Sequence record: PQ478073.1
Source: a phage
Length of the DNA: 64,000 bases
Direction: 5' to 3' (one strand)
Shown here: positions 1 through 64,000 of the stretch, one piece after another
Layout: each line of letters opens with the position of its first letter
Numbering within the stretch: position 1 is the first letter of the stretch
Program-made: the position numbers and the translations under genes
Notes under the pieces: generated by a model
Databases searched by the model: none
What the model was told of the DNA's origin: nothing
What the model saw: only the letters and a program-made list of their open reading frames with translations

Positions 1-102
1 GTTAACATATCATGTTACTTTCCTCCCTTACATAATAATGATGCGTTATTATATTTTCATTTTGTTCTTATTCCCCTTTTGGTACAAAATCATTTTAGTA
101 CT

Positions 103-128
103 GCCCCGATCTTCGGGGCATTTTTCTT
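103..128 (+). terminator. intrinsic terminator hairpin GCCCCG-loop-CGGGGC followed by T-run
   Basis: perfect 6-bp GC stem 103-108/114-119 then ATTTTTCTT. Confidence 0.6.
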
Positions 129-146
129 ATCTAAAATTGAGGATAT

Positions 147-542
147 ATGAAGAACAATATTGGAACTTCAATAATTAAACCACTTTCTTATTACCTTGAA
201 AAATTTAGAAGCACAAATGGTAATAAATTTAATAATATATTTCAGTTCTCTCATAAAGAATATATTACAATTGATCATTTTTCAAAGAAACTAATGTATG
301 TAAATGATAATAGTCATATTATTAAATTATCATTCGATATTGAGTTAGATAAATTAACATTTACGGAATACATTAATCAAAAAACTTCTTTTTTATGTCA
401 ATACAATAGGAAAGTATATAGTAATATTTCTATGTATCTAAATGATGAATATCACTTTCAACAATCTACAATAGAAGAAGTATTGTTCAGTACTGAAGAA
501 TTAAAAGAACTATATTACTGGTATAATTATTTCACATCTTGA
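147..542 (+). CDS. hypothetical protein, EE-x-FFQxST C-terminal motif family
   Basis: ORF 131 aa; SD GAGGA upstream; C-term NDEYHFQQSTIEE. Confidence 0.6.
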   Translation: MKNNIGTSIIKPLSYYLEKFRSTNGNKFNNIFQFSHKEYITIDHFSKKLMYVNDNSHIIKLSFDIELDKLTFTEYINQKTSFLCQYNRKVYSNISMYLNDEYHFQQSTIEEVLFSTEELKELYYWYNYFTS

Positions 543-597
543 CATTATTGTGGGTTTATCCTACAATACATGATGATGCTGCATTGAGGATAAATTT

Positions 598-1008
598 ATG
601 AGTTTAGATTTACACAATGAACTAAAATATTTTTTAGATTTGGACATATCAGAATTGAACCACCACGTCAATCATATGACTAGTACTGTATGGTGGTCTA
701 ATGATCAAGACGACCCAATTATCCAACTAAGTGATGAATCGTCAATTATGCGATTTTATAAGATTAATTATAAAACGAACATCAAGATCACATATGTACC
801 ATACAAAAACACACTACTAGTCGAAACACTTAATCCAAGTTCTTTATTAAAAATCACCGATTTAGATACATTACAAACAAGTGAATCTTTATTCCAACGT
901 TCATTAGTTGATGATCTTGGTGGTATTACTTTTGAAGATATATTACAATTGAAGAATATGTATAGTGAATTGTTGGAGATTAAAAACACTTTAGTAATGG
1001 GGAATTGA
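598..1008 (+). CDS. hypothetical protein, FFQ-motif family
   Basis: ORF 136 aa; SD GAGGA; C-term SESLFQRSLVDDLGGITFEDI. Confidence 0.6.
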   Translation: MSLDLHNELKYFLDLDISELNHHVNHMTSTVWWSNDQDDPIIQLSDESSIMRFYKINYKTNIKITYVPYKNTLLVETLNPSSLLKITDLDTLQTSESLFQRSLVDDLGGITFEDILQLKNMYSELLEIKNTLVMGN

Positions 1009-1009
1009 T

Positions 1010-1414
1010 ATGGTAAGTTTACTAGATATTGATAATACCAGTTTAGTGCTGGTGAAAAAAGGTTTAATTCCAAATTCTAAAAAAATTGATTATGCTGTTA
1101 TTGAAACAAATATTGGAAATATCTGGTACGACTCTGAAAGGGATATTGTGTTTAGCTGTGTAGACAGTGATCGTTCTGAATGTTGTAGAGTCGGTCATGA
1201 CGGACAATTTGTTTTTGAATTTCGTTATTGGAAGGACGCAAAATTTCACCAAGAACTGGTTGCTTTGTCAAATGAACTATATACAGAAGAATCGTTCTTC
1301 ATGGCTAGTACTATTAATGATTTTGGTTCAGTTACATTTGAGTACTATAAAAAAATATACGCACTATCCAGAGAAGTTATGAAAATTATCAGAACTGCTG
1401 AAGGTAAAGAATAA
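1010..1414 (+). CDS. hypothetical protein, FFQ-motif family
   Basis: ORF 134 aa; C-term TEESFFMASTINDFGSVTFE. Confidence 0.6.
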   Translation: MVSLLDIDNTSLVLVKKGLIPNSKKIDYAVIETNIGNIWYDSERDIVFSCVDSDRSECCRVGHDGQFVFEFRYWKDAKFHQELVALSNELYTEESFFMASTINDFGSVTFEYYKKIYALSREVMKIIRTAEGKE

Positions 1415-1415
1415 C

Positions 1416-61939: not shown

Positions 61940-61971
61940 AATTCCCTCCTTATTCATTATACTATATTTAA

Positions 61972-62003
61972 TACAAATAAGAAAGCCAGTACTCTGTACT
62001 GGC
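61972..62003 (-). terminator. intrinsic terminator (GCCAGTAC-TCT-GTACTGGC)
   Basis: inverted repeat 61985-62003 with U-rich tail on - strand. Confidence 0.55.
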
Positions 62004-62010
62004 ATTGTGT

Positions 62011-63190
62011 TTATCTAAAAGGAATGCACTTTTTGAATTTATATATATATCCAGTCTCACCTTGTTCAGTAAAATACCCAGGGTTTCCAGTCCAGTATAA
62101 ATCCTCACCTATACTAACTACCGATACTGAACCATTACCAATCGTACCAAACCACTCAACATGGGATAAGTCAACACTATCATCAAAGAATTCTATTGGT
62201 AATATTGAACCATAATTCCCAGAGAATGCGTTGCGGCCTAATCCAGCACCATTAGAATTATATCCCTTACCATTCGTATTAATAATGTTAGTACTGGATT
62301 TTATTGCATTAACATAGGATACTGGTGAAAGTTTATCGAATGAATTTGCTGTTATATCGGTATAGGGATTTGTAGTAAATGATGACCTTATTATAGCAGT
62401 ATTTTCAGAACCACCTATAGTCAACTGGGTGTTCCAACCAGCCGCCATTAAAGACAAAGCAGATGTACTACTTTGAACAATCAAACGTGTTACCCATCGT
62501 GTAGCTTGGACTGCAATTACATGAGAACTACCAAGATTCAATGCAGTAAAAGTAGTAATAGGATTATTATCACCGGTTCCTAATTGATAAAAAGTATTCT
62601 CACCACAACGATAATATATACCATCTTTTATATAGTGAAAGTTTCTGCTCATTTCACTAGATGCAATTGCAGATACACTAGTGTCTATTAAGAGTGGAGA
62701 TGTAATTGGTGTAGTTGCTGTACCCAATTCACTTGCACCATTCATGCCTATACCATATAACTGACCGTCACTTGTTAGTATTAACATGGAATTGTTAGTA
62801 CTGGTTGATGATGTTATTTTTATATCTTTTATTGAACTCGGAGAAATAGATCCAAAATATGATTCACAACGAGTCCATGTTGAAACAGAAGATGATATAC
62901 CAAAAACTGAGTTAGTTCCACTATAGTACAATTCCCCTTGTTTTGTTCTAATTATAGTACAATATAAAGAACTCCAGAAATCATCAACACTATAAGGACA
63001 TAAAACCCATCTATCTAAAAAAGATGAACCAGTAACTCCCATTTTTGATAATTGGTTTCCGTCCACGCATATATAATGACCCATCACTGTATAATACGCT
63101 TATTGAATTTTCATCACTATTAATTTTAACAACAGTATCTTTGCCAGGGGCAATATTCCCATAATTCATCATTCTTCCAAAAGGTAACAT
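62011..63190 (-). CDS. RCC1-like repeat (beta-propeller) protein, apparent +1 frameshift near 63060-63066
   Basis: ATG 63190 with SD GGAGGG encodes MLPFGRMMNYGNI ... SLYMRG, then conserved sequence continues in +1 frame (track ORF 62011..63087). Confidence 0.55.
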
Positions 63191-63223
63191 AATTCCCTCC
63201 TTTATTCATTATAATATATTTAA

Positions 63224-63257
63224 TACAAAAAAGAAAAGCCAGTACTGAAGTACTGGC
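63224..63257 (-). terminator. intrinsic terminator (GCCAGTACT-GA-AGTACTGGC)
   Basis: inverted repeat 63238-63257 followed on - strand by TTTTCTTTTTTG. Confidence 0.6.
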
Positions 63258-63264
63258 GAAATTA

Positions 63265-64000
63265 TTACAATTGTCTAGGTGTATCCAGAACATATCTAGT
63301 TGTACTAGGACCACCATCATCATAAGTTCCGGTTGAATATATATTTTTCATATCAGCAGTTAGAAAAGTACGATACGAACCGCGATATATTTTTATTTTA
63401 TCATACATAGAATATGTTATTTGTGTAGGCATTGGACATGCAGTAAACTTACCAACAGTTGCACTAGTACCAATACCCAATGAACCAGCATAACTACTGG
63501 CATTTAAACCAGTTGCATATACACCAGTACTCGTAACTAGTATACTAGATTGTGTTGGGTATCCTGTATGAATTGAATACAAAGTTCCAGTTGGTAATGT
63601 CGTACTATTGCTCCCTAATACAGCAAGTGCCGAACTGGTTGTGGTATTGTTACCCCATGCACCATTACTCGCTAAACCACCAACTAGAAACTGACGTGCA
63701 CCAGAACTTGGATTCTCAACCAAAGCACTGACTGCACCACTTGAGCATCCAGTGTATTGTAACGTTTTTGTGTATGTTGTACTTGGTTTATATAAAGTAT
63801 ATTCATTAAATGGTGTCCATGTGGTACTGGTACTTATACCTGACGTACCACCACCAATATATAAATTATTTTGTGTATCAAAAAACATTACACAGTTATT
63901 TGTTGACTGTATTTGTGCAATATCAACATTAGGCGTGACAGCTTTTACAAATGATCCATCTGTTATTTGTTGAGTACTACCAGTACCATCAGCGAATTGT
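63265..64000 (-). CDS. RCC1-like repeat protein, 5'-partial (N-terminus beyond window end)
   Basis: frame stays open with no start or stop from 63888 to 64000; YAGSLGIGTSATVG repeats. Confidence 0.6.
   Translation of the reverse strand, partial: QFADGTGSTQQITDGSFVKAVTPNVDIAQIQSTNNCVMFFDTQNNLYIGGGTSGISTSTTWTPFNEYTLYKPSTTYTKTLQYTGCSSGAVSALVENPSSGARQFLVGGLASNGAWGNNTTTSSALAVLGSNSTTLPTGTLYSIHTGYPTQSSILVTSTGVYATGLNASSYAGSLGIGTSATVGKFTACPMPTQITYSMYDKIKIYRGSYRTFLTADMKNIYSTGTYDDGGPSTTRYVLDTPRQL

Follow-up and report, generated by a model that had tools for sequence, protein, structure and literature searches.

Several short words are known to recur across a whole genome at frequencies far above expectation. 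The highly iterated palindrome HIP1 of cyanobacteria (GCGATCGC) is a short perfect palindrome that is hyper-abundant genome-wide, within genes in all phases as well as between them, with an excess of 15- to 300-fold that is independent of codon usage, orthologue sites conserved above background and a quasi-regular spacing; it is methylated by cognate orphan DNA methyltransferases, and its function is still unexplained (PMC5861425, PMC4390886). Target sequences for type II restriction-modification systems (such as the ScaI type, AGT^ACT) and for orphan phage methyltransferases are sharp six-base palindromes with little flank information, and phage genomes are known to lose palindromes under restriction pressure. 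A further group, comprising Chi, the FtsK-orienting polar sequences (KOPS), the DNA uptake and uptake signal sequences (DUS/USS) and GATC in mismatch repair, is over-represented across the replicon, coding DNA included; every one of these words has its own protein that reads it, and paired copies of DUS also serve as terminators. Lastly, the nick- or packaging-associated motifs of T5 and of Pseudomonas phage tf/Rembedalsseter (WACTRTGAC) are clade-conserved words shared by genomes with little nucleotide identity in common, at about 10 per genome, on one strand and at nick sites, single-strand breaks having been reported for Rembedalsseter only (PMC11780129). Here we describe the palindrome AGTACT, which is about tenfold over-represented in a 64,000-nt stretch of phage DNA (sequence record PQ478073.1, positions 1-64,000; hereafter the window) and in a whole clade of jumbo phages related to RaK2.

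AGTACT resembles HIP1 in its many-fold excess, its independence of coding and the conservation of its sites between diverged genomes, perhaps in their spacing, which is even but has no discrete period, and in that the genomes concerned encode orphan DNA methyltransferases. It differs in being another word, 6 bp long, AT-rich and viral rather than cellular, in the size of its excess (about 10-fold, or about 50-fold for the extended form CAGTACTG), in its absence from the modified motifs of the clade methylomes and in being coupled with a total absence of GCGC. With type II sites it shares a sharp six-base palindromic core and a C5-cytosine methyltransferase gene in the same genome; unlike these normally phage-depleted sites it is enriched and conserved, its modification in relatives is unreported, and no ScaI-like endonuclease was identified. 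Its even spacing resembles the need of a coverage function, as for the Chi, KOPS, DUS and GATC words. Chi, KOPS and DUS, however, lack symmetry and have a strand polarity; AGTACT, identical to its reverse complement and with symmetric flank preferences, cannot carry direction. In contrast to GATC, which works through hemimethylation, it is not among the modified motifs reported in relatives. In contrast to the nick motifs it is symmetric and occurs, by extrapolation, about 1000 times per genome.

The window derives from an Asteriusvirus jumbo coliphage of the PBECO4/121Q group, with genomes of about 350 kb: a megablast search with positions 30000-38000 returned 32 full-length matches at 97-99% identity to Asteriusvirus genomes (slurp01, SP27, E9.1, PBECO4, 121Q and others). 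It has a G+C content of 33.5% and is an early-gene region of the phage, in which a simple caller (ATG start, at least 150 nt, greedy choice by length) found 134 open reading frames (ORFs), 120 of them on the + strand and most of them short and without annotation. Seven tRNA genes, many near-consensus sigma-70 promoters and the end of a - strand array of RCC1-repeat genes are also present.

Exact counting gave 182 copies of AGTACT in the window against 18.31±4.53 (maximum 28) across 100 dinucleotide-preserving shuffles, which places the word first in over-representation among all 4096 hexamers; the hexamers ranked next (GTACTG, CAGTAC, TAGTAC and GTACTA) are its own one-base-shifted overlaps. 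The expectation rose to 66.6 under an order-3 Markov model and to 142.6 under a maximal-order model, the latter because the motif itself inflates AGTAC and GTACT. The excess had been proposed in an earlier reading made by eye from the sequence only, and was borne out: the densities estimated there as 2-3 per kb against roughly 0.3 expected were measured as 2.84 and 0.29 per kb, 7 copies were again counted in 1-3000, and 9 rather than about 10 in 30000-33200. Paralogous families or repeated promoters were rejected as a source, the paralogue families being small and the replication and structural genes of other genera equally rich. No earlier description of AGTACT enrichment was found in the RaK2 and CBB genome papers, in the paper on Sharanji, in a comparative review of jumbo phages or by full-text searches of the literature available to us.

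The word lies within ORFs at 147 sites, in all three phases, and at 35 sites in intergenic DNA or at ORF edges, with densities of 2.7 per kb in coding and 3.9 per kb in intergenic sequence. Coding copies numbered 147 against 43.1±5.5 after shuffling of synonymous codons with the protein sequence and the codon usage of each gene held fixed, and against 23.4±4.7 after shuffling of codon order. The earlier reading had allowed that the excess might vanish once codon usage and dinucleotide composition were modelled; it survives both kinds of shuffle, so that neither dinucleotide content nor codon usage nor protein sequence can have produced it as an artefact. By phase the counts were 68, 36 and 43 against 23, 7 and 13 expected, a 3- to 10-fold enrichment in each. 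The enrichment thus operates at the DNA level and is independent of coding. Ser-Thr pairs were encoded AGT-ACT in 68 of 126 cases against 19 expected, and the dipeptides Ser-Thr and Val-Leu are themselves over-used about 1.5 times, so that the pressure extends to protein sequence. In the FFQ family, where the conserved Ser-Thr had been said often to be encoded AGT-ACT and two members with Gln-Tyr-Cys to carry the same DNA word nearby, AGTACT was indeed located in the two members checked, at +12 nt in FFQ-R-S-T and at +7 nt in FFQ-Y-C. Placement within genes is approximately uniform, except that the word is scarcer at ribosome-binding sites and peaks 0-25 nt past stop codons (21 against 9.5 expected). 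AGT, the first motif codon in phase 0, is the commonest serine codon in the window (430 of 1326).

Individual sites are maintained. In 22 kb aligned with the Asteriusvirus Ecwhy_1 at 85.3% nucleotide identity, 48 of 59 AGTACT copies were intact (81%), where the figure was 48.5% for hexamers in general and 46.6% for those matched in composition (p = 3e-7). Conservation at third codon positions was 96.5% within the word and 74.7% elsewhere (p = 1e-7), and when the control was taken from local flanks the contrast was smaller but persisted, at 82% for the sites and 55-73% for the hexamers beside them. Within the word, five positions were 95-100% conserved and the fourth 89%, with flanks at about 90%; turnover between the two genomes was balanced, at 11 losses and 12 gains by diverse substitutions. 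At greater distance, GAP32 and pEa_SNUABM_12 (about 75% nucleotide identity) had 20 of 39 sites in common (51%) against 24.5% of hexamers (p = 3e-4), and 3 of 6 sites were common to the topoisomerase genes of PBECO4 and RaK2.

The sites are also more evenly spaced than random. In 8 of 9 loci the variance of counts per 2 kb was smaller than their mean (pooled p = 0.002), and the longest AGTACT-free gap in the window was 1426 bp where about 2000 was expected, so that the window holds no large AGTACT-free island of the kind a recent import might leave. Pairs less than 48 bp apart were rarer than chance (75 against about 100), and no discrete spacing period, helical periodicity or short-range clustering was found. 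Cooperative pairs and helical phasing were accordingly rejected.

The excess is shared by a clade of large phages. Relatives were sampled as 40-50 kb pieces covering replication, structural and early genes, with positions 1-32043 taken for Paula and 150001-200000 for XacN1. Observed and expected counts of AGTACT were as follows.

PBECO4 (Asteriusvirus): 184 against 17.6, and 111 against 12.0
Ecwhy_1 (Asteriusvirus): 101 against 10.7
GAP32 (Mimasvirus): 114 against 14.2
XbC2 (Mimasvirus): 124 against 11.0
Kaldavass (Mimasvirus according to PMC11780129): 120 against 17.0
Hallingskeid (a novel genus according to PMC11780129): 142 against 17.6
RaK2 (Alcyoneusvirus): 114 against 10.8
pEa_SNUABM_12 (Eneladusvirus): 120 against 15.1
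PA5oct (a distant relative, on Pseudomonas): 3 against 14.3
XacN1 (more distant, on Xanthomonas): 0 against 9.2
Paula (an unrelated coliphage): 0 against 9.2

Five lineages (Asteriusvirus, Mimasvirus, Alcyoneusvirus, Eneladusvirus and Hallingskeid) thus carry an 8-11-fold excess. AGTACT was the top hexamer in every AGTACT-rich phage sampled, and the excess was equal in the replication, structural and early gene regions of the relatives. Their hosts belong to several enterobacterial genera, with one isolate (XbC2) reported on Xanthomonas. Outside the clade, in Paula, PA5oct and XacN1, the word is depleted, which matches ordinary avoidance of ScaI-type sites, and the AGTACT-rich clade therefore appears to oppose a real pressure. 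An enriched, evenly spaced and conserved palindrome in five lineages that are no longer alignable at the DNA level implies an undescribed genome-wide DNA signal. As a separate observation, the words of Dam and Dcm were avoided to an extreme degree in the 50 kb of XacN1, with GATC at 0 against 221 expected and CCWGG at 0 against 79.

The motif has a sharp core. Among the 16 NGTACN words strong enrichment was confined to AGTACT, and its one-mismatch neighbours occurred at 0.4-2.6 times expectation. Around the core the flanks show a weak symmetric preference, 40% of sites having C at -1 and 50% having G at +1, with T at -3 and A at +3 also favoured, giving the preferred extended form tnCAGTACTGna (t-n-C-AGTACT-G-n-a); CAGTACTG occurs 38 times in the window against 0.77 expected, and the C/G preference was the same in all AGTACT-rich phages sampled. 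Such a sharp core with weak symmetric flanks is the typical mark of a factor that reads duplex DNA with two-fold symmetry.

This enrichment stands against a background of palindrome loss. No other six-base palindrome in the window exceeded 1.7 times expectation, and more than 20 G/C-containing ones, each expected 3-9 times, were at zero (among them GGATCC, CTGCAG, CAGCTG, CCATGG, TGGCCA, GCATGC, GGTACC, CGTACG and GTCGAC), which is strong general restriction-site avoidance; the earlier remark that AGTACT is an exception to palindrome depletion was justified. Spill-over from the avoided NGTACN palindromes was rejected, CGTACG and GGTACC together being expected only about 9 times against 164 surplus sites. 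The four-base palindrome GCGC was also missing: the window had 0 copies, where the background models predicted about 25-50, and eight AGTACT-rich genomes, sampled over about 496 kb, likewise had 0, where about 335 were expected; its frequency was normal in PA5oct and Paula. Double deamination of GCGC to GTAC was rejected as a source of AGTACT, the expected pools being far too small (about 28-50 for GCGC and about 2 for AGCGCT). For the host, a single 50-kb sample of E. coli K-12 held 3 copies of AGTACT (0.06 per kb) and 342 of GCGC (6.8 per kb), AGTACT thus being about 47 times denser in the phage.

From the enrichment, its DNA-level nature, and the symmetry, conservation and even spacing of the sites, we infer a word of duplex DNA that is read by a factor. 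We tentatively favour, as a possibility somewhat short of an even one, that AGTACT is a highly iterated palindrome under selection at the level of double-stranded DNA in the RaK2-like jumbo-phage clade, serving as the binding word of a putative two-fold-symmetric factor. Selection would keep it as a cis-acting word, and the factor would be clade-specific, most simply a phage-encoded dimeric DNA-binding protein reading unmodified DNA. Function would depend on genome-wide density, at one site per about 350 bp, rather than on a few special loci. The simplest role, which is speculative, would be self-marking for some phage-specific process, for example in protection, compaction or counter-silencing, in transcription or in replication. 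In Asteriusvirus the word also has local uses in the spacers of early sigma-70 promoters (where TG can act as an extended -10) and in the stems of terminators and other hairpins. AGTACT would then be a phage counterpart of HIP1, and a more testable one, in a coliphage that is lytic and has, by extrapolation, about 1000 ScaI sites. Digestion of these genomes with ScaI would yield fragments of about 350 bp, and blind removal of AGTACT would be inadvisable in synonymous recoding or synthetic redesign of these phages.

Several points weigh against this reading. Searches of the 134 window ORFs against Pfam and PHROGs revealed no helix-turn-helix or ribbon-helix-helix DNA-binding domain, in a set where most ORFs have no annotated family and which represents 64 of about 350 kb. 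With six bases the core is short for a typical bacterial dimeric regulator, and its length is rather that of a restriction-modification target. That the sites are conserved and evenly spaced implies maintenance by something, which need not be protein binding, and the self-marking role derives solely from the density contrast with the one 50-kb host sample. Finally, the negative methylation evidence comes from Hallingskeid, Kaldavass and RaK2, concerns virion DNA only and is in part based on data that were not shown.

The opposite behaviour of the two words in phage and host means that AGTACT and GCGC divide phage from host DNA almost perfectly. The absence of GCGC suggests a clade-wide taboo, perhaps with a phage nuclease behind it that cuts host GCGC. 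A more ambitious version, which we regard as doubtful, is a two-word discrimination of self from non-self, in which GCGC would be the non-self word attacked by the phage nuclease and AGTACT the self word read by a protecting, organising or licensing phage protein. RaK2-like jumbo phages have ordinary DNA without the base hypermodification of T4. The scheme, if true, would be a composition-coded functional equivalent of T4 hydroxymethylcytosine, and the pairing of AGTACT with the missing GCGC offers a handle on how large phages without modified bases tell host from phage DNA.

A mutational or repair drive without function, in which mismatch correction like very short patch (VSP) repair or biased gene conversion turned near-cognates into AGTACT, would produce apparent site conservation just as selection does. 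A known drive of this type acts at CCWGG in E. coli via Dcm and Vsr, and T4-like phages undergo intensive recombination. Repair drives have also been proposed for HIP1 (PMC4390886). The pattern of change between the window and Ecwhy_1 fits poorly: conservation is not limited to the cytosine position, and the 11 losses and 12 gains arose by many substitution types. The deamination neighbours are not depleted (AGTATT 49 against 37 expected, AATACT 23 against 39), and most neighbours are mildly enriched. A drive does not predict even spacing, and the size of the excess, which is 10-fold for AGTACT and reaches about 50-fold for CAGTACTG, lies far above known VSP effects. VSP-like repair was rejected, and we consider a drive in general improbable.

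Modification of the word itself was examined next to a methyltransferase gene that the window encodes.

3337-4197, + strand: C5-cytosine DNA methyltransferase of 286 aa (PF00145, E = 4e-38)

Its closest solved structures are the catalytic domains of the mammalian DNMT3A/B/C, matched over the full length (E ~1e-23; 2e-23). Orthologues with 64-100% identity occur in Asteriusvirus, Mimasvirus, Alcyoneusvirus and Hallingskeid, Eneladusvirus not being among the top matches listed; the names of the homologues found in the search give no specificity. In TH47, JNE01 and A4 only residues 78-286 match in one place, with a second match elsewhere, and judging by these alignments the gene may be split or interrupted there. 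The hypothesis is that AGTACT is the target, for instance as AGTA(m5C)T, and is enriched because the mark is useful, as was proposed for HIP1. It gains from the typical type II shape of the palindrome, from the spread of the gene across AGTACT-rich genera and from the thought that a word retained while most other palindromes are avoided might need protection. The methylomes of relatives speak differently. Nanopore comparison of native and amplified DNA from Hallingskeid and Kaldavass showed modification of GATC and CCWGG, and of TGCAT in Kaldavass, but not of AGTACT (PMC11780129). AGTACT is as frequent as GATC in both phages (142 and 120 per 50 kb), and the comparison should therefore have had ample power of detection. 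The two methylases predicted in Hallingskeid are matched by two modified motifs (PMC11780129), which leaves no enzyme for AGTACT, and bisulfite analysis of RaK2 reported CpG methylation (PMC3622015); among solved structures the window enzyme is closest to the DNMT3 CpG methylases. CCWGG is not avoided in the AGTACT-rich clade, consistent with a Dcm-like role, and the window enzyme probably acts on a motif other than AGTACT, of the CCWGG or CpG type. Paula encodes a homologue with 51% identity and yet has no AGTACT where 9.2 are expected, and a site carrying 5-methylcytosine would tend to decay to AGTATT, the count of which is not unusual. Modification of AGTACT in the window phage is thus disfavoured, on evidence from virion DNA of relatives, and we hold the hypothesis to be quite improbable; where the sequence-only reading had offered a binding or modification motif, binding is retained as the best reading and modification is not. 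TGCAT/ATGCA, for its part, was reduced 2- to 2.5-fold in XbC2 (39 against 101) and Kaldavass (49 against 114) and not in other clade members.

A role in RNA, as a hairpin block for terminators or processing or as the site of a ribonuclease or RNA-binding protein, would profit from a palindrome, which is present in the transcript of either strand, and several hairpins or terminators do consist of two copies. The following structures contain the word.

56498-56523, + strand: hairpin with an 11-bp stem, AATCCAGTACT/AGTACTGGATT, made of two copies of AGTACT and lying a short way upstream of a ribosome-binding site
63238-63257, - strand: RCC1-array hairpin resembling a terminator, GCCAGTAC..GTACTGGC with a T-run after it
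60770-60792, - strand: hairpin of the RCC1 array, TGCCAGTACT/GTACTGGCA
10850-10876, + strand: intrinsic-terminator-like hairpin ATACCCAGTAC..GACTGGGTAT with a T-run, AGTACT spanning the border of stem and loop
20102-20146, + strand: two copies of TCAGTACTGA, 35 bp apart at a gene end and able to pair in RNA

The first of these (-15.1 kcal/mol, z = -5.0) had been described as 56499-56522 with a 10-bp stem, and the claim that the terminators of the RCC1 array use AGTACT was also correct, these being built from GCCAGTAC(T)/(A)GTACTGGC. The peak of sites just past stop codons would fit a function in transcripts. Against it, about 80% of all copies stand isolated in coding sequence, most sites have no partner and close pairs are under-represented rather than enriched. 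An RNA signal would need neither a palindrome (64 of 4096 hexamers) nor symmetric flanks, and GAGUACUC pairs as well as CAGUACUG and is yet almost absent. A primary role in RNA is in our view highly unlikely.

Binding by a protein of the enterobacterial host, through which the phage would manipulate that host, might involve for example SlmA, a factor of nucleoid occlusion. Its consensus, GTGAGTACTCAC, is centred on AGTACT, and SlmA requires G, T and a purine at three flanking positions, placed symmetrically about the core (PMC3020112). The core is identical, and the AGTACT-rich phages grow on Enterobacterales in all cases but one, the Pseudomonas phage PA5oct and the Xanthomonas phage XacN1 having no excess. 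The flanks, however, are wrong for SlmA: the phages favour C at -1, no combination of flanks is rarer than GAGTACTC (1 copy in the window and 0-1 per locus in every AGTACT-rich genus), and sites of the form GTRAGYRCTYAC number 0 in the window. For any host protein the AGTACT-rich Mimasvirus XbC2, reported on Xanthomonas, and the AGTACT-depleted coliphage Paula are further obstacles, and the literature search found no other such protein with this specificity. We judge this explanation very unlikely indeed. Half-site spacing and orientation led us to reject LexA- or TrpR-like sites, and TTCAGTACTGAA, met in the literature, was a motif-finder mis-prediction and no known operator.

The use of AGTACT in promoters, on which the sequence-only reading had laid weight together with terminators, is real. 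AGTACT ends exactly 1-2 nt before the -10 in 7 of 34 near-consensus sigma-70 promoters, against about 0.2 expected, and the family lies within one base of the coordinates first given for it; each entry below begins with the -35 element.

14714-14741, + strand: sigma-70-type promoter TTGACT-N16-TATAAT, AGTACT ending 1 nt before the -10
15193-15221, + strand: sigma-70-type promoter, AGTACT ending 2 nt before the -10 (AGTACTGA-TATAAT, extended -10 TGn)
15966-15994, + strand: promoter of the same class as 15193, upstream of tRNA-Ser(gct)
16858-16886, + strand: promoter of the same class as 15193, upstream of tRNA-Ser(act), tRNA-Met and tRNA-Asn
33454-33481, + strand: promoter TTGACA-N16-TATAAT, AGTACT-G adjoining the -10
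37418-37445, + strand: promoter arranged as at 33454, with an independent spacer
48045-48072, + strand: promoter arranged as at 33454, with an independent spacer

In the GA-TATAAT version the terminal TG of AGTACTG forms an extended -10, and the three promoters at 33454, 37418 and 48045 have otherwise unrelated spacers. Longer palindromes of operator-like form are found as well.

18179-18192, no strand assigned: 14-bp perfect palindrome ATTCAGTACTGAAT within a 380-bp intergenic region
18300-18313, no strand assigned: second copy of ATTCAGTACTGAAT, not kept in Ecwhy_1 (core AGTTCT)

The former, previously placed at 18178, looks like an operator from its sequence, and 6 of 9 extended palindromes of the TCAGTACTGA type are intergenic. 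That transcription control (an early-promoter spacer or extended -10, or the operator of an early-gene repressor, with coding copies incidental) accounts for the excess, as the fixed placement in seven promoters, the unrelated spacers of three, the intergenic TCAGTACTGA and the two ATTCAGTACTGAAT might suggest, is nevertheless the least probable explanation of those weighed, since promoter spacers hold only 7 of the 182 sites, coding copies are individually conserved at synonymous positions too, replication and structural regions are enriched alike, and the arrangement is absent from equally rich relatives (none of the 10 promoters of the XbC2 early region has it, nor do the GAP32, RaK2, Eneladusvirus and Kaldavass samples). 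Seen only in Asteriusvirus, it cannot cause a clade-wide excess. Seven promoters and a handful of hairpins are a minority beside 147 coding sites out of 182; these are real but minor, secondary uses that leave the enrichment unexplained.

The tRNA cluster at 14100-17300 has the highest AGTACT density in the window, with 12 copies in one 2-kb bin, and the word can adjoin the 5' end of a tRNA gene, as at 14171-14176 directly before the tRNA-Ser at 14177. ARAGORN assigned the anticodon ACT, with A at position 34, to the tRNA-Ser at 16897-16988 (+ strand), directly downstream of an AGTACT-type promoter. The codon AGU would be read directly by such a tRNA-Ser(ACT), whose A34 is not usual in bacteria. 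A second promoter family was found in four copies on the + strand (39191, 49814, 51096 and 52817), with the form TTGACT-(T/A)CGGTC(A/G)GCC(C/T)TTTTTG(C/T)-TATAAT; its spacer is conserved and G+C-rich and contains an imperfect inverted repeat, which from its sequence may be a different operator.

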